DNA of 39,024 bases from Escherichia phage JSS1, in the sequence record KX689784, one strand, 5' to 3'. Below, one piece after another: positions 1-39,024 of the stretch; the first letter of the stretch is position 1, and each line of letters begins with the position of its first letter. A program made the position numbers and the translations under genes. The notes under the pieces are model-generated. The model saw nothing but the letters and a program-made list of their open reading frames with translations. It ran no database searches and was not told where the DNA came from.

Positions 1-430
1 ATTACAGATAGAGACTCAGAGAAGACCAATAGTCCCAACCTATCGTCCTGACCTCCAGCCATAGCCTAGACCTATCGTCAGGACTATGGGTCAACCTTGA
101 GTCAACGACCTGAAGTTTAGACCGAAGGTCTAGGGGCAGGGCCTTTGGTCTGGACTTAAAGAGGGCCTATGGGGAGACTTGAGGTTCTTGAACTGTGAGA
201 TGTGGTCTCAAACTTTTGGTCCAAAACTCATCGAAGACTGTAGGTGGCAGCTACTGTAGGTCAAGGACCGTAGGTCAGGCGACACTAGGATAGACCAATA
301 AGTAGGATGACCCTAAGTGAGCTTCTATTAAGGTGTTACCTAAAGTCCTTGACCTACAGTAGCTAAGGTCAGTAGAGTGAGTCTTTATCCACGTACTGAC
401 CTTAGGTCTTCCGCTCATGAATCGTTACCA
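1..430. repeat. Non-coding terminal region with dispersed short repeats (GACTGTAGGT / CCGTAGGTC / CCTATCGTC types); likely holds the genome terminus and terminal-repeat sequences
   Basis: No ORF with start and RBS. Motif copies at 236-245, 254-261 and 268-276 continue the array at the window end. Position matches the T7 right-end/left-end non-coding regions. Confidence 0.5.
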
Positions 431-746: not shown

Positions 747-769
747 CATCCCTATAGTGATAGTTAAGT
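747..769 (-). promoter_or_regulatory. Phage RNAP promoter (phiOR-like), consensus class
   Basis: Minus-strand CTTAACTATCACTATAGGGATGG; full match to the repeated promoter motif; +1 G at 752. Confidence 0.8.
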
Positions 770-3102: not shown

Positions 3103-3548
3103 TGCGTCACCTCCTTATCTTGCTGCAAGGCTCTCACAGTGTCCTGAAGGGCCTTAATCCACTTGTCTCCTTTCACTCCGATGGCGATAAGACGTTTAGC
3201 ATCTCGTTCGTCAAGTTCGGCGTAACCATCAACGATGCATCGACCGTCACTTTGCGTGGCTCCACTCGTAGGTTTGACTCGGATGCGCAGCCGCTTATTG
3301 TCAGACTGAAGGTCAGCAATAATCCTATCAGTGCTGCCTTCCAGCGAGGACATTTCGTCCTGAAACCGTTTGGACACTTTGTTGACTTCAGCTTGGACAG
3401 CAAGCCTTGTATCTTCCGATGCCTTAAGATTCGAGGTGTATTCTGCATTGACCTTAGCCTCCCACTTATTGTTAGCGGTGTGGTAGCCACCAGCAAACAT
3501 CACTGCTGCAAGTAACCACGGAGCCGCTCTCTTTAAAAATTCGAGCAT
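3099..3548 (-). CDS. 18.5: Rz-like i-spanin (T7 gp18.5 homolog, 149 aa)
   Basis: N-terminus [18 protein letters not shown] and [24 protein letters not shown] resemble T7 gp18.5. N-terminal TM segment. GGGAGGG RBS. Confidence 0.85.
3173..3448 (-). CDS. Candidate Rz1-like o-spanin lipoprotein embedded in the +1 frame of gene 18.5
   Basis: Alternate-frame ORF inside 18.5 with a hydrophobic stretch ending in lipobox-like LTISGC and a proline-containing mature part. First ATG at 3448 (GGGAGG upstream) gives an unusually long N-region, so the true start is uncertain. Confidence 0.35.
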   Translation of the reverse strand: MQNTPRILRHRKIQGLLSKLKSTKCPNGFRTKCPRWKAALIGLLLTFSLTISGCASESNLRVEPRKVTVDASLMVTPNLTNEMLNVLSPSE

Positions 3549-6409: not shown

Positions 6410-6432
6410 GTTTCCTATAGTGATAGTTTAGT
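6410..6432 (-). promoter_or_regulatory. Phage RNAP promoter (phi17-like), consensus class
   Basis: Minus-strand GGACTAAACTATCACTATAGGAAACGG, overlapping the gene 16 stop. Confidence 0.8.
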
Positions 6433-13685: not shown

Positions 13686-13708
13686 AGTCCCTATAGTGAT
13701 AGTTAAGG
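13686..13708 (-). promoter_or_regulatory. Phage RNAP promoter (phi13-like), consensus class
   Basis: Minus-strand CTTAACTATCACTATAGGGACTATAGG. The +1 region partially repeats the promoter core (CCTATAGTCC-CTATAGTG on the plus strand). Confidence 0.8.
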
Positions 13709-18366: not shown

Positions 18367-18389
18367 TCTCCCTATAGTGATAGTTTAGT
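18367..18389 (-). promoter_or_regulatory. Phage RNAP promoter (phi10-like), consensus class
   Basis: Minus-strand GGACTAAACTATCACTATAGGGAGACCAAGA; perfect GGGAGA initiation region. Confidence 0.85.
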
Positions 18390-19362: not shown

Positions 19363-19385
19363 TGTTCCTATAGTGATAGTTTAGG
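19363..19385 (-). promoter_or_regulatory. Phage RNAP promoter (phi9-like), consensus class
   Basis: Minus-strand GCCTAAACTATCACTATAGGAACAACGG, overlapping the gene 8 stop. Confidence 0.8.
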
Positions 19386-22183: not shown

Positions 22184-22206
22184 AGTCCCTATAGTGATAG
22201 TTTAGT
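22184..22206 (-). promoter_or_regulatory. Phage RNAP promoter (phi6.5-like), consensus class
   Basis: Minus-strand CACTAAACTATCACTATAGGGACTTTAG. Confidence 0.8.
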
Positions 22207-28021: not shown

Positions 28022-28044
28022 CATCCCTAAGGTGATAGTTTAGT
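28022..28044 (-). promoter_or_regulatory. Variant phage promoter (class II-like; CACCTTAGG instead of CACTATAGG)
   Basis: Minus-strand CTAAACTATCACCTTAGGGATGG: the upstream half is consensus, two changes at -4/-3. Position matches T7 class II promoters before gene 4. Confidence 0.45.
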
Positions 28045-28279: not shown

Positions 28280-28738
28280 TTAACCACGGTCGGAAGTGAC
28301 CAGTTCGTTGGTAGTCAACCAGCGTTGCAAGTCAAAACTTGGACAGGCCTTAGGTGCTACGTCATGGTGTGCTTTGATTTCTGCCTGAGGATACAGGACC
28401 TTCAGGTCATCCAGCTTGATGCGCAGGGAGTCCATCTGGGCTGGAGTGAAGTTAGCTTCAAACTTGCCATTAGCGTTGATCCCACCTACAAGGCAGACGC
28501 CTACGGACCGGGAGTTCCAGTCCTTAACGTGTGACCCTACGACATTGACCGGGCGGCCTTCTTCCACAGTGCCATCACGCTTGATGACGAAGTGGTAGCC
28601 TACGTCCAGCCAGCCTTGCTGCTTGTGCCACATACGGATTGTCTCTACCCCGATGTCCATATCTGGCTTGGTAGCCGAACAGTGAACGAAGATAGCGTCA
28701 GTCCGTGACCGTGGGTTGAACTGAACCTTACTCACCAT
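28280..28738 (-). CDS. 3.5: Lysozyme / N-acetylmuramoyl-L-alanine amidase (T7 gp3.5 homolog, 152 aa)
   Basis: Near-colinear with T7 lysozyme (DAIFVHCSATKP, WLDVGYHF.IKRDGTVE.GR, GVCLVGGI, KACPSFDL, NELVTSDRG). Confidence 0.96.
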   Translation of the reverse strand: MVSKVQFNPRSRTDAIFVHCSATKPDMDIGVETIRMWHKQQGWLDVGYHFVIKRDGTVEEGRPVNVVGSHVKDWNSRSVGVCLVGGINANGKFEANFTPAQMDSLRIKLDDLKVLYPQAEIKAHHDVAPKACPSFDLQRWLTTNELVTSDRG

Positions 28739-30815: not shown

Positions 30816-30838
30816 CTGTCCTACAGTGATAGTTTAAG
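30816..30838 (-). promoter_or_regulatory. Variant phage promoter (phi2.5-like; CACTGTAGG)
   Basis: Minus-strand CTTAAACTATCACTGTAGGACAG: one change at -3. Overlaps the gene 2 stop, upstream of gene 2.5. Confidence 0.5.
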
Positions 30839-30992
30839 TCTCAGGACGAATCCGTCCTACCACAAACCCAGCGTCCTCATACTCTTGGGACTTCAGGGTA
30901 GCCTCTTCAAGAGACTTTGCGTACACCGGAACCTCGAAGGACTGAACTCGACCCTCAAGCTCCACGATGTATTTCTTCTCAACCTCAGTCAT
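30834..30992 (-). CDS. 2: Host RNA polymerase inhibitor (T7 gp2 homolog, 52 aa)
   Basis: [14 protein letters not shown]...[10 protein letters not shown] resembles T7 gp2 (SFEVPIYAETLDEA...AGFEVTRVRP). ATG at 30992 with GGAAGGAG RBS. Below the ORF-track size cutoff. Confidence 0.7.
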
Positions 30993-31070
30993 AAACCACG
31001 CTCCTTCCATTGGTTGTATAGTGTAATGTAGTCCGGGTTGAGAGTCTTCTCATACATCTCCCGGCACCAC

Positions 31071-31790: not shown

Positions 31791-31813
31791 GTGTCCTATA
31801 GTGATATCTTAGG
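31791..31813 (-). promoter_or_regulatory. Variant phage promoter (phi1.5/1.6-like)
   Basis: Minus-strand CTAAGATATCACTATAGGACACC: consensus -8 to +2, changes at -12/-11. Confidence 0.5.
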
Positions 31814-33611: not shown

Positions 33612-33791
33612 TTACGCTCCTACGGAATACTTCTCTTGGTTTACCAGAGAGTCTTTACCTTCAGCGTTACGGAAAGCACCCTTGACACCACCGCCACGCT
33701 TGGTCTTGTTCAGCTTGCGGCCCTTCGGAATGTAATCTTCAGTCTGCTGACGTTCACGGATGCGCTCTAAGTTGATAGTGTTCTGATACAT
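33612..33791 (-). CDS. 1.1: gp1.1 homolog (59 aa, basic)
   Basis: GRKLNKTKRGGG matches the T7 gp1.1 core (GRKLNKTKR). ATG at 33791 with GGAG RBS. Below the ORF-track cutoff. Confidence 0.65.
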   Translation of the reverse strand: MYQNTINLERIRERQQTEDYIPKGRKLNKTKRGGGVKGAFRNAEGKDSLVNQEKYSVGA

Positions 33792-33822
33792 GTTGTAGCT
33801 CCAGTTATTTAGGTTATAGGGT

Positions 33823-33863
33823 TAATCATGAAGGCCACGACTTTGAGTCATGACCTTGAGTCT
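33823..33863 (-). promoter_or_regulatory. Conserved RNA hairpin at the 5' end of the phi1.1 transcript, candidate RNase III site (T7 R1.1 position)
   Basis: Minus-strand RNA AGACUCAAGGUCAUGACU-CAA-AGUCGUGGCCUUCAUGAUUA: 12 bp stem with G-U pairs; flanks shared with 3605 and 25891. Confidence 0.5.
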
Positions 33864-33885
33864 AATCCTATAGTGATAGTTTAGG
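33863..33885 (-). promoter_or_regulatory. Phage RNAP promoter (phi1.1-like), consensus class
   Basis: Minus-strand AGCCTAAACTATCACTATAGGATTAG. Confidence 0.75.
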
Positions 33886-33959
33886 CTAACCTCTTCTGCG
33901 TTGGATTAAAGTGAATACTGCTAGTGCTCCTAGCCACAAGGCCAGTAACTGTAGGTCTG

Positions 33960-34175
33960 TCATTTGGTCTGCTCCAGCTTAGACACTGCGTCTTTCAGGT
34001 ACTTCTCGTGGTTGGATTCCACAAGATGGACGAGGGTCTTGAATGGTACGTTAAGCTGTTTTGACAGCTCGGTAGGGATGACCGTGGTCTTCACCAGACC
34101 CTTGCCGTTGTGTTCTGTTACGGTCACGATTTGAGTCCCACCATTAACGCCAGCCTGCTTGTGTGCAAATTTCAT
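33960..34175 (-). CDS. Hypothetical protein (71 aa) immediately after the RNAP gene
   Basis: ATG at 34175 with AGGAGA RBS; no recognisable motif. Confidence 0.55.
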   Translation of the reverse strand: MKFAHKQAGVNGGTQIVTVTEHNGKGLVKTTVIPTELSKQLNVPFKTLVHLVESNHEKYLKDAVSKLEQTK

Positions 34176-34187
34176 AACTCTCTCCTG

Positions 34188-36869
34188 TTAAGCGAATGCA
34201 AAGTCTGAAGACAAGATGTCTTCGATATTCAGTTTACCTTTCTTCGGAAGCTCAGGCAGCTTGTCGCGCTGACTCTCATGTAGCTGGTATTCAAACTGCT
34301 CGTAGAAGTCAAGCAGCACATCGTTGTCTCGGTAGGTCTCAACCATCGTCTCACGGACGCCACGGAACAGATATTCAGCGTCAGCCGGGATGGTCCCAAA
34401 GCTATCGTGAATCACTGCGAATGACATCACGCCATACTTGCGGTGCGTGTGGACTACAGTCTTGCGGAGGTGGCTACCATCTTGCGAGTGGACGAAATTC
34501 GGGCTAATGCCTGACTCCTGCTTGTGCTTGTCCAGCTCCTTCTTAGTGCCTTTGTTGACTGTAGGCTGAAGGTTGAATGACCCTAGGAACATAAGGTTCA
34601 GACGAGTAGTATCCTTCTTGCGGTATTCCTGCCAGACAGGGAAACCATCAGGTGTGACCCAGTGTACCGGAAGGCAAGGCTTCAGGGTTTCACCAGTCTT
34701 CTTGTCCTTCACCTCAGCAGCCAGCAGCTTGGCAGCACCTTGCAGCCACTTCATCGCGTCAACCGCAGCAACTACGGTCACACTCACAGCTTCCCAAATC
34801 ATCTTAGCCATGAAGCGAGACGCTTGGCTTGGTTCAGTGAACATAGCGCCAGACCCTGAATCAATCGCTGGCATCACGATATCCTCGTAAACTTGGTCTG
34901 CGAAGCCATACTCTTTCGACCCGTAGGCCAGAGTCATGACCGAACGCTTAGTGACCTTGCGTGACATACCGTAGGTCAGCCACTGACGGGCCAGCTCTCG
35001 TGTCCCCAGCTTGAGACGTTCGGTAATCTCACCAGTTTTCTTGTCCTCGTGAGTTACCATCTCGTTGTCCGTACCGTTAACCAGCAGGACTTTAAGCTCC
35101 TCCTCAATGCGGTCGGACACGATGCGGTAGATGTCTTGGACCTTACCGGATGGCGTCAGGTTTACTGCATGTCCACCGATGTGGTCACGAAGCATCGCGC
35201 TGAAGTGCTGAATCCCAGAGCAGGACCCATCGAACGCTATCGGTAGCGAGCAGGAGTAAGACAGGCCGTGGTGCATTACGCCAGCATACTCGAAGCAGAA
35301 CGCAAGGAAGCAGAACGGAGAGTCTAACCTGCCCCACCACTCAATGCTATCCATCGGGGCTTTGGCAGCAGCCATGATGTTGTCGTGGTTGTCTTCCACC
35401 CACTTGATGCGCTCCTCGAAGGTGACTTTATCGACACCCGCACAGTTTGCACCATGGACCTTCAGCCATTTGAAACCATCAGCACCAATAGGCTTACCGA
35501 CTGCCAGAGTCAGGAGACCCTTCTGCATGTCGTTACCCTGAGGGTTGAACATCGGCACAGCGTAGACGCGACCGCGCCAGTCCATGTTGTATGGGAACCA
35601 GATGGCCTTGAACTGAGAGAACTTATTCGCTTGGTTGACGATAAAGCTCAGTGACAATCTGCGTGACTGTCTGGCCTTCTCGCGGCGATAGATGCCAGCA
35701 GCAGCCTTCTTCCATGCCTTGAGTTCCTCCTCGGTCTCACCCGCATAGTCCTCAGGCTTCAGTGGTTCCATCTGAGGGATGTCATCAATAGGCGTATTGT
35801 TCAGCTTCTCTACCATGTTCACCACGTCCAGCACCTTCTTGTTCACTTTCCAAGGTGTATTCTGGATGATGTTTACTGCCTCGTAGACTTCAGGCATATA
35901 CACGTCTTCGTAACGTGCTACCGCAGACTTAGACCCTAAGCGAATCAGTGGTAATGGTCTGCGACCTTTGGCCCAGTACCCACCACCTACGACACCCGTC
36001 CACGGCTTAGGTGGAACGACGCAAGGCTGATAGACTGGCGCAATACCCGCAAGGCTGAATCCACGTTGTGCCATCTTCTTTACCCAGAAGTCTGACAGGT
36101 GGACCATCTCAACATCAGTCGCTGCATTGCCAGCACCGTAACGCTTAAGCTCAACCAGTTGTGTAGACTGGATGACAATCTCAAGCATCTTGATGCCAAC
36201 GTGTACCGCTTCGGTCGGACTCCAAGTACCCCACGCATCTTCCAGTTGACCTTGCTCCAGCATGGAGGTCTCAACCGCTTGCATGTAGGCTTTCTTATAG
36301 GATGCCCCGGCTCGCTTGTTCAGGTTCTCAGCTATCGCCTTCTTGAAGTGCTCCTGCTCCTTGTCACGAATGCGACCGAAGCGGATTTCATCCTCAAGTG
36401 TACGGCCTATCGCGGAGGCCATCGGTGTAATCGGGATACCTTCAGGCTTGACCAGCTTGGAGAGGATGACCTTCAGTATGATGACCGCAGCAGACTCACA
36501 GGAGATGCGCAGAGAGCGGTCCTTTACGGCCTTCTCTTCAGTGCTCAACATGGTGAACGCTACGCTAGGACGAGAGGTTGACAGCTTCCCGTCTGGGCCT
36601 TCATGCCACTCCTTGACGGCTTGCGCAATCTTAGGGACCAGAGTCTGCATCAAAGGTTTGGCGACCTGATTGTCTGCCAGTTCCCCGCGCTCTGTCTGGC
36701 GCTCAAGGTTCTTGATGAAACGTCGCTCGCCTTCAGTGTATGCCTCATGCTCAAGCTGAAGCTGTTTTACTGCAAGGTCCTGCCCGTAGTGGTCGGCCAG
36801 CAGGTTAAACGGCTCAATTGCGTTCGACACGTCAGAGAAGTCGTGTTTGTCAATGGAGATGACGCTCAT
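34188..36869 (-). CDS. 1: DNA-directed RNA polymerase, single subunit (T7 gp1 homolog, 893 aa)
   Basis: Colinear with T7 RNAP (DFSD...PFN.LADHYG, RFGRIRD, PCVVPPKPWTG..GGGYWA.GRRPL, WFPYNMDWRGRVYA, DGSCSGIQHFSAMLRD, NFVHSQDGSHLRKTV, C-terminal FAFA). The segment between LQPT and HKQESGI, where my recollection places the T7 specificity loop, is diverged. Confidence 0.98.
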   Translation of the reverse strand: MSVISIDKHDFSDVSNAIEPFNLLADHYGQDLAVKQLQLEHEAYTEGERRFIKNLERQTERGELADNQVAKPLMQTLVPKIAQAVKEWHEGPDGKLSTSRPSVAFTMLSTEEKAVKDRSLRISCESAAVIILKVILSKLVKPEGIPITPMASAIGRTLEDEIRFGRIRDKEQEHFKKAIAENLNKRAGASYKKAYMQAVETSMLEQGQLEDAWGTWSPTEAVHVGIKMLEIVIQSTQLVELKRYGAGNAATDVEMVHLSDFWVKKMAQRGFSLAGIAPVYQPCVVPPKPWTGVVGGGYWAKGRRPLPLIRLGSKSAVARYEDVYMPEVYEAVNIIQNTPWKVNKKVLDVVNMVEKLNNTPIDDIPQMEPLKPEDYAGETEEELKAWKKAAAGIYRREKARQSRRLSLSFIVNQANKFSQFKAIWFPYNMDWRGRVYAVPMFNPQGNDMQKGLLTLAVGKPIGADGFKWLKVHGANCAGVDKVTFEERIKWVEDNHDNIMAAAKAPMDSIEWWGRLDSPFCFLAFCFEYAGVMHHGLSYSCSLPIAFDGSCSGIQHFSAMLRDHIGGHAVNLTPSGKVQDIYRIVSDRIEEELKVLLVNGTDNEMVTHEDKKTGEITERLKLGTRELARQWLTYGMSRKVTKRSVMTLAYGSKEYGFADQVYEDIVMPAIDSGSGAMFTEPSQASRFMAKMIWEAVSVTVVAAVDAMKWLQGAAKLLAAEVKDKKTGETLKPCLPVHWVTPDGFPVWQEYRKKDTTRLNLMFLGSFNLQPTVNKGTKKELDKHKQESGISPNFVHSQDGSHLRKTVVHTHRKYGVMSFAVIHDSFGTIPADAEYLFRGVRETMVETYRDNDVLLDFYEQFEYQLHESQRDKLPELPKKGKLNIEDILSSDFAFA

Positions 36870-36938
36870 ACTTAAAGTCCTTGTTATTAGTCTTTCACTT
36901 AAAGTCTCTTTGGTCTTTCACTTGGAGTCTTAGACCTT

Positions 36939-36961
36939 GAGTCCTATAGTGATAGTTAAGT
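36939..36961 (-). promoter_or_regulatory. Consensus-class phage RNAP promoter about 75 nt upstream of the RNAP gene
   Basis: Minus-strand ACTTAACTATCACTATAGGACTC, identical over -17 to +2 to the promoters at 747 and 13686. Transcript 5' end contains GACUCAAGGUC. Confidence 0.7.
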
Positions 36962-36966
36962 CAGAA

Positions 36967-37359
36967 TCACTTGCATATCAGTGGGTTAGCGTGAAGATGA
37001 CTGAAGTCACCATGAGTCGTGTGCTTGATGGTTGACCGTTGGTCTATCGCCTTCCAGCCTGAGACCAGAAGTTTACCATCGTCGGTGATCGGTCGTCCAC
37101 CATACGCCAGACACATCAGCTCGGACTTATGGCCCTCGGCCCGGAGTCGTGCCTGTAGTACACGGTCCCGCTCCTGCTGTTGACGTGCGGTGTGTGACGA
37201 GTGGCGATGCACATAAGCAGTCTTGTTCCCGGTCTCCTCCCAGTAGTTGCGACCACGAGAGTCCGTGCCGACGTACTTCCACTCTACGCCGTTCTTATCG
37301 GTGAAGGCGCGTAGCGCTGTGATTTGATCCAGTGCGTGTACCAGATTTGACATATTCAT
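36967..37359 (-). CDS. Hypothetical early protein (130 aa) at the T7 0.6/0.7 position
   Basis: ATG at 37359 in a TAATG overlap with the upstream ORF stop. Too short for a gp0.7-type kinase and no kinase motifs seen. The first ~20 aa loosely resemble my recollection of the T7 gp0.7 N-terminus. Confidence 0.6.
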   Translation of the reverse strand: MNMSNLVHALDQITALRAFTDKNGVEWKYVGTDSRGRNYWEETGNKTAYVHRHSSHTARQQQERDRVLQARLRAEGHKSELMCLAYGGRPITDDGKLLVSGWKAIDQRSTIKHTTHGDFSHLHANPLICK

Positions 37360-37556
37360 TACAGTTTGCTCCCTAAGGTTGCTATATCCCAGACGTTCGC
37401 TAAGTTGCGCATGAATCGTCCGTTAGGTTGACGTACAGTCCAGCGGACCAGACGTACATAGTTTAATTTGTAGACTTTACGCGCTTTGTTGATGTCTCTC
37501 ACCAGCACGTAGGCGATAAGTCCATAGCCTATGGCTATCAATAGTGCAGATATCAT
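37359..37556 (-). CDS. Small early protein (65 aa) with N-terminal transmembrane segment
   Basis: ATG at 37556; hydrophobic N-terminus ISALLIAIGYGLIAYVLV then a basic tail. Confidence 0.5.
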   Translation of the reverse strand: MISALLIAIGYGLIAYVLVRDINKARKVYKLNYVRLVRWTVRQPNGRFMRNLANVWDIATLGSKL

Positions 37557-37568
37557 AGCGATTTCCGT

Positions 37569-37814
37569 TTAATACAGTCGTATATCCCCCAAGCTATCAG
37601 AAAGATGACCGGAGATAAGCATACCCAATGTCCAATACTCATAGATTATCCCGCCAGTCCAATCCACATCAGTAGACCGCGCACGACCCCCTACCGGAGA
37701 GAATATTATGTCCACTGCCAGCCAGCCAAGACGTAGTGCATTCCCATCGACTATGACCGCAGTTAGCCATGACAGAATGATGGCGATGTAAAGTGCGATG
37801 ACTGTAAATTTCAT
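37569..37814 (-). CDS. Small early membrane protein (81 aa)
   Basis: ATG at 37814 with AGGAG RBS; N-terminal hydrophobic helix FTVIALYIAIILSWLTAVIV. Confidence 0.55.
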   Translation of the reverse strand: MKFTVIALYIAIILSWLTAVIVDGNALRLGWLAVDIIFSPVGGRARSTDVDWTGGIIYEYWTLGMLISGHLSDSLGDIRLY

Positions 37815-37882
37815 TAGTTAACTCCTATCAATTTAAGTGATAATCTTTGAGGCCACCTATCAGTTAGCTGACCTCTCGTCTA

Positions 37883-38032
37883 TCACTCAGCGTATAAGCT
37901 GTCGTGTATACGCTTGCGGCCATCATATACCGCTTTCAGGAGACGCATAGCCGCATCATGGTTTAACTGCCCGGTCTTGACCATAAGCCGGGCGTTGGTG
38001 ACGTGGTGCTGGCAGAGACCATAAGTTACCAT
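37883..38032 (-). CDS. 0.4: Small early protein (49 aa), candidate T7 gp0.4 homolog
   Basis: ATG at 38032 in a TGATG overlap with the ocr stop. YGL...AMRLLKAVY...YAE loosely matches my recollection of T7 gp0.4 (YGL...AMAQLKELY...SAE). Below the ORF-track cutoff. Confidence 0.35.
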   Translation of the reverse strand: MVTYGLCQHHVTNARLMVKTGQLNHDAAMRLLKAVYDGRKRIHDSLYAE

Positions 38033-38364
38033 CACTCGTCGCCCTCTTCAGCCTCAAACCAGACGACATCAGAGCTATTAGACACGTCGATATACAGCGC
38101 CTCATAGATGCGAGCTTGCAGTATATGCGTTACGTCCTTGGTCTCAGGCATCAGCCCAGAGTCTTCGAACTCATGGTCTATACCATCAGCAGCCATCACC
38201 GTGAAAATCTCGTGGTAATAGTGCGGAACATTGCCGTCTACGACCTCATGCAGCGCATCGCTGTAGTCGTCACCTTCAGCTATCTTGTCGTACTGAATAC
38301 GCTCGTTAAATGCCTCAACGGTTGCAGCCAGCAGCTCATAGTATGCATTGGCGTTACGTTCCAT
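38032..38364 (-). CDS. ocr: Ocr, DNA-mimic anti-restriction protein (T7 gp0.3 homolog, 110 aa)
   Basis: Strongly acidic and close to T7 Ocr: [45 protein letters not shown] versus T7 [45 protein letters not shown]. First gene after the early promoter region. Confidence 0.93.
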
Positions 38365-38412
38365 AGTTATATCCTCTCAAAGTTAATCGTGTGTGTGTTA
38401 GTGACTATCAGT

Positions 38413-38444
38413 CAGGGCCTTCAGATGTAGACTCAAAGACCCTG
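38413..38444 (-). promoter_or_regulatory. Hairpin upstream of ocr, candidate RNase III site (T7 R0.3 position)
   Basis: Minus-strand RNA CAGGGUCUUUGAG...UGAAGGCCCUG can pair over about 11 bp; it sits in the position of the T7 R0.3 region. Confidence 0.3.
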
Positions 38445-38559
38445 TAGTTAGTCGCTATCGGCGCACATTAAGAGTTTATCCAGATTGTTAAAGAGCATTC
38501 GCGTTGGCTGTCGTCGCCGTGCTATCCCGTTTCAGTGTTGGGACTCACTGTCGTTTCGA

Positions 38560-38597
38560 TGTGGTACATATTACTTTAAGTCGTTACTGCTTGTCAA
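38560..38597 (-). promoter_or_regulatory. Host sigma70-type early promoter (T7 A3-like)
   Basis: Minus-strand TTGACA-18 nt-TAATAT then GTACCACATCGAAACGACAGTGAGTCC, which closely matches the T7 A3 initial transcribed sequence as I recall it. Confidence 0.5.
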
Positions 38598-38702
38598 CTA
38601 CTTTCTGTCATCTGCCTGTTTTTCGTATGACTTATCAGGCTGTCTACTTAACCAGGATGACCCGGCGTCTTCACTATCCGGTTGTTGCCGTGTCGTGTTG
38701 AC

Positions 38703-38738
38703 GGAAGCTATTAAGCCATAATCTAGACCTATAGTCAA
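38703..38738 (-). promoter_or_regulatory. Candidate host sigma70-type early promoter (T7 A1-like position)
   Basis: Minus-strand TTGACT-17 nt-CTTAAT; good -35 but weak -10. Confidence 0.3.
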
Positions 38739-38849
38739 TAGGTAATCTTAAATAATATTGATTAAGCTATCGTCGGCCTCATAGTGTAAGAGGATATAGT
38801 CTTTGACTAACATGTCTTTGACCTTAAGTCTATAGCTGTGTGTCTATTA

Positions 38850-39024
38850 ACTGTAGGTCTCTGACTGTGGGTGTTGGTGTCTTATGGTTGTGACTGTAGG
38901 TTAGTTAGACTGTAGGTACAGCAGGAGTCAATGACTGTAGGTAGTGAGACTGTAGGTTGTAGGACCTATGGTTGTGACTGTAGGTCGGTGAGACTGTAGG
39001 TTGTAGGACTTATGGTTGTTGAGA
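38850..39024. repeat. Array of (GA)CTGTAGGT short direct repeats with a nested ~44 bp higher-order repeat
   Basis: At least 8 copies of CTGTAGGT (one CTGTGGGT) at 14-28 bp spacing. GAGACTGTAGGTTGTAGGAC(C/T)TATGGTTGT occurs at 38946 and 38990. Same motif family as at window positions 236-276. Confidence 0.7.

Follow-up and report, generated by a model that had tools for sequence, protein, structure and literature searches.

A conserved candidate promoter for the phage RNA polymerase directly upstream of its own gene in Escherichia phage PE3-1 and K1F-like relatives

The window analysed here, a stretch of 39,024 nucleotides, carries all of its long ORFs on the minus strand and is therefore the reverse complement of the phage map. 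In megablast its segment 34100-39024 (minus strand) matched at 100% the sequence of Escherichia phage PE3-1 (KJ748011 / NC_024379), a K1F-like phage of the genus Kayfunavirus (Autographiviridae, Studiervirinae), and the same segment is matched at 92-94% by K1F, EcoDS1, Citrobacter phage SH3 and many others. The window as a whole is a circular permutation of the PE3-1 GenBank record. One of its ends (window positions 1-14), read in phage orientation (TCTCTATCTGTAAT), contains ATCTGT, which we take to be the class II pause motif of T7 type; this motif lies at the annotated concatemer junction, so that the window represents a whole genome in permuted form, opening at that junction. The left genome end (about 38900-39024 on the minus strand) is packed with CCTACAGTC repeats, and the GenBank record of Citrobacter phage CR8 annotates a similar (acctacagtcaac)3 repeat.

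Gene 1 encodes a single-subunit RNA polymerase (RNAP) that is 99.1% identical to the K1F enzyme and 98.8% identical to that of EcoDS1, and whose specificity loop is the same as in both. Between its ATG and the stop codon of the preceding early gene, gp0.38, lies ACTTAACTATCACTATAGGACTC, a 23-bp promoter of T7 type spanning positions -17 to +6, oriented as the genes are and carrying GG at +1/+2 (Table 1). The gp0.38 stop codon is 5 nt before the -17 position; among relatives this codon differs (TGA, TAA or TAG), and the promoter beyond it keeps its place. A transcript begun at the +1 G (36944) would have a leader of 75 nt ahead of the ATG at 36869, in agreement with an earlier, sequence-only reading that had placed a promoter about 75 nt before the polymerase start codon.

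Table 1. Features of the window considered in this study (window coordinates; -, minus strand)
Feature	Position	+1	Strand	Basis or remark
Host (sigma-70-type) early promoter	38702..38738		-	Homologous to EcoDS1 host promoter 469-505, 2 substitutions
Second host early promoter, TTGACA-18-TAATAT	38562..38597		-	Homologous to EcoDS1 host promoter 609-647
ocr	38032..38364			
Early gene gp0.38, 130 aa	36967..37359		-	ORF; no Pfam match
Gene 1 promoter (23 bp)	36939..36961	36944	-	19-mer at 36943-36961
Leader of phage-RNAP transcript, predicted, 75 nt, purine-rich	36870..36944		-	
Leader direct repeats AAGTGAAAGAC	36913..36923 and 36890..36900		-	
Leader direct repeats GACTTTAAGT	36897..36906 and 36870..36879		-	Second copy adjoins ATG
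Shine-Dalgarno-like AAGGA, 8 nt before gene 1 ATG	36878..36882		-	
Gene 1, single-subunit phage RNA polymerase, 893 aa	34188..36869		-	ORF
Phage promoter after gene 1 (phi1.1/phi1.05 equivalent)	33863..33885	33868	-	Motif + PWM
Weaker phage promoter copy, 2 mismatches	31791..31813	31796	-	Core search + PWM
gp2, inhibitor of host RNA polymerase	30834..31010		-	PF16857, E = 2.6e-20
Phage promoter copy, CACTGTA variant	30816..30838	30821	-	Core search + PWM
gp3.5, amidase homologous to T7 lysozyme	28280..28738		-	PF01510, E = 2.4e-15
Phage promoter copy, CACCTTA variant	28022..28044	28027	-	Motif + PWM
Phage promoter phi6.5	22184..22206	22189	-	Motif + PE3-1 record
Phage promoter phi9	19363..19385	19368	-	Motif + PE3-1 record
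Phage promoter before capsid gene 10, GGGAGA initiation region	18367..18389	18372	-	Motif
Phage promoter phi13, differs from gene 1 copy at -17	13686..13708	13691	-	Motif
Phage promoter phi17	6410..6432	6415	-	Motif
Phage promoter phiOR, near right genome end; identical to gene 1 copy from -17 to +2	747..769	752	-	

Interrogation of the window with the 19-mer ACTTAACTATCACTATAGG, allowing up to three mismatches, returned nine matches, every one of them on the minus strand, where none is expected (100 shuffles); a looser core search raised the inventory to 11 promoter copies, all intergenic and all on the coding strand. The gene 1 copy is the leftmost of these 11 same-strand sites, and neither search found a phage promoter to its left anywhere in the window, so that PE3-1 has no equivalent of the left-end promoter phiOL. 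In a leave-one-out position weight matrix (PWM) the gene 1 copy scored 32.6 bits, ranking fifth of the 11 sites (range 23.0-35.2). Its recognition half is near-consensus, with a T at -14, a position occupied by A in eight of the 11 sites. The initiation region reads GGACTC, against GGGAGA at the promoter of the capsid gene, and is of a GGA type shared by six of the 11 sites, this one included; since the strongest late promoter has GGGAGA instead, output from the gene 1 promoter may be modest, and its earlier description as strong goes somewhat further than these figures. The copy had earlier been described as a full consensus, which holds insofar as the 19-mer of this multi-copy motif is matched exactly and is slightly generous in view of the -14 T, the GGACTC initiation region and the intermediate rank. 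Likewise, the identity from -17 to +2 claimed with two other copies is borne out for phiOR (751-769), which has no mismatch to the 19-mer, but not for phi13 (13690-13708), which has C instead of A at -17.

Existing annotation of these sites is uneven: the PE3-1 record marks just four of the 11 copies, and at 2874-2896, over the very 23-mer upstream of gene 1, it notes a 'host RNAP promoter'. That label, and the presence of the minor E. coli C promoter at the equivalent position before gene 1 in both T7 and T3, would be in keeping with a sigma-70 promoter used by the host enzyme. A sigma-70 consensus scan of 33700-39024, however, gave no -35/-10 pair at 36939-36990; the sequence is instead the phage consensus, other copies of which are named phi6.5 and phi9 in the same record; and changes at the site go together with changes in the specificity loop of the phage polymerase (see below), which is not expected of a host promoter. 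In the record of EcoDS1 (Kayfunavirus; EU734172), the identical 23-mer at 2244-2266 is annotated 'phi', ahead of gene 1 at 2336. The arrangement there is that of PE3-1, with the promoter between gene 0.38 and gene 1 and a 75-nt leader, and nothing of substance separates the two apart from the label, a phage promoter in one record and a host promoter in the other. Contradicted by the scan, the motif and the co-variation alike, a host promoter at this position is extremely improbable, and given the phi names of the other copies in PE3-1 and of the same 23-mer in EcoDS1, the host label looks like an annotation error. Host promoters proper were found further upstream, where two sigma-70-type sites precede ocr (Table 1); gene 1 thus still belongs to the early operon transcribed by the host.

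The leader separating the phage promoter from gene 1 showed no significant secondary structure, either alone (z = 0.28) or in a 161-nt segment that included upstream sequence (z = 0.05). An RNase III site of the R1 type, or a regulatory hairpin, was considered for this interval and rejected, since shuffled sequence folds just as well. Neither a terminator-like site between promoter and ATG nor an ATCTGT class II pause motif in the leader was detected. Two pairs of direct repeats occupy the leader (Table 1), and part of them, ACTTTAAG, is similar to the sequence that enhances translation in the T7 gene 10 leader. The segment from the Shine-Dalgarno-like element to the ATG (AAGGACTTTAAGTATG) showed no variation among 22 aligned K1F-like sequences, comprising PE3-1, viral contig loci, K1F and EcoDS1.

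To place the site in a phylogenetic context, the PE3-1 polymerase was used to search public viral contigs (IMG/VR), yielding 80 loci with RNAPs 57-99% identical to it. A promoter precedes gene 1 in every one of the 22 loci with an RNAP identity of 88% or more, its +1 lying 75, 76 or 81 nt before the ATG. One is present as well in Citrobacter phage CR8 (L016; Caroctavirus, RNAP 79%), at 87 nt before the annotated ATG, or at -102 when counted from the start of the tblastn match; the CR8 record itself carries a 'predicted promoter' at 3356-3378, with gene 1 at 3460. A second test, free of any prior motif, took the 16-mers of the 300 nt preceding gene 1 and asked whether any of them is found again elsewhere in the locus with two or fewer mismatches. 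It was positive in 23 of 23 K1F-like loci (the 22 and CR8), and in each of these except the truncated L017 the recurring motif occurred at least three times; it was negative in all T7/T3-like (RNAP 62-64%), K11/KP32-like (58-59%) and Berlin-like loci, and positive in one gh-1-like locus, L084, with two copies. Across K1F-like loci, lineages with switched promoter specificity included, the 23-bp promoter block is invariant at 17 of 23 columns, and the next 23 nt of leader at seven of 23; the corresponding count upstream of the promoter was left out, as a 1-nt indel in L015 distorts the columns. With no match expected by chance in the window, and with the position kept in every K1F-like locus and following two independent changes of promoter specificity (described next), the possibility that the site is a fortuitous or relic copy devoid of function can be assigned a very small likelihood.

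The identity of the bases at the gene 1 site follows that of the polymerase. The specificity loop of K1F type, RLNLMFLGSFNLQ (N748/N756), is paired with AACTATCAC promoters (AACTATC). Two loci with RNAPs 89% identical to that of PE3-1 (L018 and L038, close to phages Ro103C3lw and GW1) have instead the loop RLDLMFLGTFRLQ, with D748/R756 as in T3; here the promoters read AAACCCTCACTATAGG at downstream sites and at the gene 1 site alike, so that this loop is paired with AAACCCTCAC (AACCCTC, as in T3) at gene 1 as at the other promoters. CR8, in turn, combines a divergent loop with a motif of its own, AAGGAAGGTACACTATAGG, and its AAGGAAGGTACAC element is shared by the gene 1 site and other promoters. 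In all three loop types, then, bases -12 to -8 of the gene 1 site conform to the cognate loop. That the site has tracked two independent changes in polymerase specificity is the strongest of the arguments that it is used by the polymerase, and on this comparative evidence we identify it as a selected, cognate promoter of the phage's own RNAP. The pairing of loop and promoter has an experimental counterpart: a K1F specificity loop placed in T7 RNAP activates the predicted cognate promoter 17-fold, and does so orthogonally (PMC3458549). Co-variation of this kind among close relatives provides natural RNAP-promoter pairs for orthogonal expression systems.

Several variants of the theme were observed among the retrieved loci. 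One clade with RNAPs about 94% identical to that of PE3-1 (L013, L014, L015, L020 and L022) carries CACTAAAGG, a T-to-A change at -2 confined to the gene 1 promoter, together with a rearranged gene 1 leader of 81 nt; its downstream promoters keep the -2 T (CACTATAGG, with some CACTGTA/CACTTTA variants). The change might reflect weakening of, or relaxed constraint on, the gene 1 promoter, or it may represent the tuning of a single promoter. Three Klebsiella phages of the K11/KP32-like group (L043, L044 and L058) have promoters of their own, AATTAGG(T/G/A)..CACTATAGG, and in addition a sequence resembling the K1F-type promoter (AGATAACTATCACTATAGG in L043 and L044, AGAACACTATCACTATAGG in L058) located 57 nt downstream of a phiOL-like copy and about 2494, 2452 and 2708 nt upstream of gene 1 in L043, L044 and L058, respectively; the sequence may belong to the left end as a conserved element, or it may be a promoter whose specificity is foreign. 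Among gh-1-like phages, a near-consensus match to the phage's own promoter, AAAAACCCTCGCTATGGC, is conserved inside the gene 1 ORF, at +1838 to +1844 in L086, L090, L091, L094 and L095 and at +1835 in L092; it could act as a promoter within the ORF or result simply from conservation of the coding sequence. L084, a gh-1-related metagenomic phage with an RNAP 57% identical to that of PE3-1, carries its AAAAACCCTCACT promoter motif twice in tandem before gene 1, at distances of 193 and 96 nt.

The sequence-only reading had proposed that a genuine cognate promoter stands directly before gene 1, and both its conservation and its co-variation with the specificity loop uphold that proposal. Because the promoter is cognate and conserved, and because neither a terminator nor a stable hairpin intervenes before the ATG, autogenous transcription of gene 1 is the natural reading; judging from sequence comparisons, we assign a probability of roughly 0.8 to the interpretation that gene 1 is transcribed from this site, acting as a functional cognate promoter. 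What conservation and co-variation show is use of the site by the polymerase; that raised expression of gene 1 is the benefit under selection does not follow from them. A literature search returned no mapped transcription start sites for PE3-1 or any Kayfunavirus. Publications describing IMM-002, an EcoDS1-like phage, and Hafnia phage Ca present promoters in figures only, with the gene 1 site not discussed.

The positive feedback loop suggested earlier appears reasonable in this setting, and its course can be outlined by reference to the genes present. Host RNAP, starting at the left-end sigma-70 promoters, would transcribe gene 1 along with ocr and the small early genes. The first polymerase molecules so produced would initiate at G36944 and transcribe their own gene together with the downstream class II genes, whereupon synthesis of polymerase mRNA would become self-sustaining and free of host RNAP. 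Shut-off of the host enzyme by gp2 would then end host-driven transcription of gene 1, and later the gp3.5 lysozyme homologue, likely a brake on the phage RNAP by analogy with T7, would bind the polymerase and limit the loop. As K1F-like phages lack phiOL at the left end, the gene 1 promoter would be the first point at which the phage RNAP could take over rightward transcription.

How this differs from the T7 arrangement requires some care. T7 had been described as having no cognate promoter in front of gene 1, which is true of the proximal region: in T7 and T3 alike, gene 0.7 is separated from gene 1 by an interval with the E. coli C promoter (and in T3 also the RNase III site R1) and no phage promoter. 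Further upstream, however, both phages carry phiOL, the first of their cognate promoters from the left, which shares the strand of gene 1 and precedes the host promoters, about 2.8 kb away in T7; from the start of the motif to gene 1 the distance is 2783 nt in T7 and 2610 nt in T3, and phage RNAP could in principle read from phiOL into gene 1. The difference of the K1F-like phages, which have no phiOL, is consequently one of position and not of presence versus absence, and probably one of efficiency as well.

This comparison raises an alternative in which the gene 1 promoter, though real and used, has been selected mainly as a relocated phiOL, its principal task being the launch of class II transcription, the priming of replication or the uptake of the genome into the cell, and the self-amplification of gene 1 being a minor by-product. 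The complementary distribution would suit it, T7, T3 and K11-like phages keeping a far-left cognate promoter and K1F-like phages having the gene 1 promoter in its stead, as would an initiation region of the common GGA type and not the GGGAGA of the capsid promoter. Yet the promoter immediately following gene 1 (+1 at 33868) could serve class II transcription and DNA entry equally well, the close spacing between the gene 1 promoter and the gene 1 ribosome-binding site is fixed in three genera, and every transcript begun at the gene 1 promoter must cross gene 1 first. We judge a genome-entry advantage in particular to be weak, since the promoter just after gene 1 would enter the cell at almost the same time. 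On these grounds selection chiefly as a phiOL equivalent seems to us quite unlikely.

A stronger version of the autogenous interpretation can also be stated. The promoter next to gene 1 might constitute an essential timing device of K1F-like phages, a natural autogene whose self-amplifying burst replaces phiOL and, where no gene 0.7 is annotated (as in PE3-1), the hand-over from host to phage RNAP that is assisted by the gp0.7 kinase. We offer this tentatively and regard it as doubtful. Were it correct, the promoter would set the speed of takeover, and the T-to-A change at -2 in the L013 clade would be a natural tuning of the gain of the loop.

The logic of such a circuit has a synthetic precedent: Dubendorff and Studier reportedly engineered, in 1991, a T7 autogene in which the T7 RNAP gene is placed under a T7 promoter and amplifies its own expression. 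PE3-1 gene 1 has the same circuit logic; unlike the synthetic construct, which is hard to maintain in cells, this is a natural arrangement, at work during a lytic infection lasting minutes. Among natural systems, a search of phage SP6 that allowed up to four mismatches found no cognate promoter ahead of the RNAP gene. The closest annotated parallel outside the K1F-like group is phage gh-1 (AF493143; Ghunavirus), whose record places 'phi1; putative gh-1 RNAP promoter' at 939-961 and gene 1 at 1058. There, as in PE3-1, the promoter follows the host promoters and precedes gene 1, by about 100 nt, and a cognate promoter stands before gene 1 in all five full-length gh-1-like loci that we retrieved. 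gh-1 differs from PE3-1 in having an RNAP only 57.8% identical, a different motif (AAAAACCCTCACTGTGGC) and no early genes before gene 1, and its record shows an RNase III site and a minor terminator adjoining phi1.

The arrangement is accordingly neither rare nor new. The implication of the sequence-only reading that it is unusual does not stand against a genus-wide distribution and prior annotation as 'phi' in EcoDS1, 'predicted promoter' in CR8 and 'phi1' in gh-1. Nor do relatives place the site in another context: they do present an ordinary conserved promoter, as had been envisaged, but one serving the same gene arrangement and not a different one. In Pseudomonas phage LUZ100 a phage-specific promoter phi1 directly upstream of the RNAP gene was mapped by ONT-cappable-seq (PMC10134795), and from this transcription map its authors proposed, as a hypothesis, positive feedback from phi1 (PMC10134795). 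LUZ100 is a distant relative of PE3-1 with a different promoter motif, and its promoters were mapped by ONT-cappable-seq, whereas those of PE3-1 are known from sequence. A gene-1-proximal promoter is thus already known and the feedback hypothesis is in print for LUZ100, so that the contribution of natural self-transcription to infection dynamics is a question already posed in the literature; the practical value of the present analysis is limited, correction of the host-promoter mislabel in the PE3-1 GenBank/RefSeq record being one part of it. Taken across the systems compared, at least three genera of Studiervirinae (Kayfunavirus, Caroctavirus and Ghunavirus) share, as a stable trait, a cognate promoter directly before the polymerase gene, and the T7, T3 and K11 groups use the distant phiOL instead.
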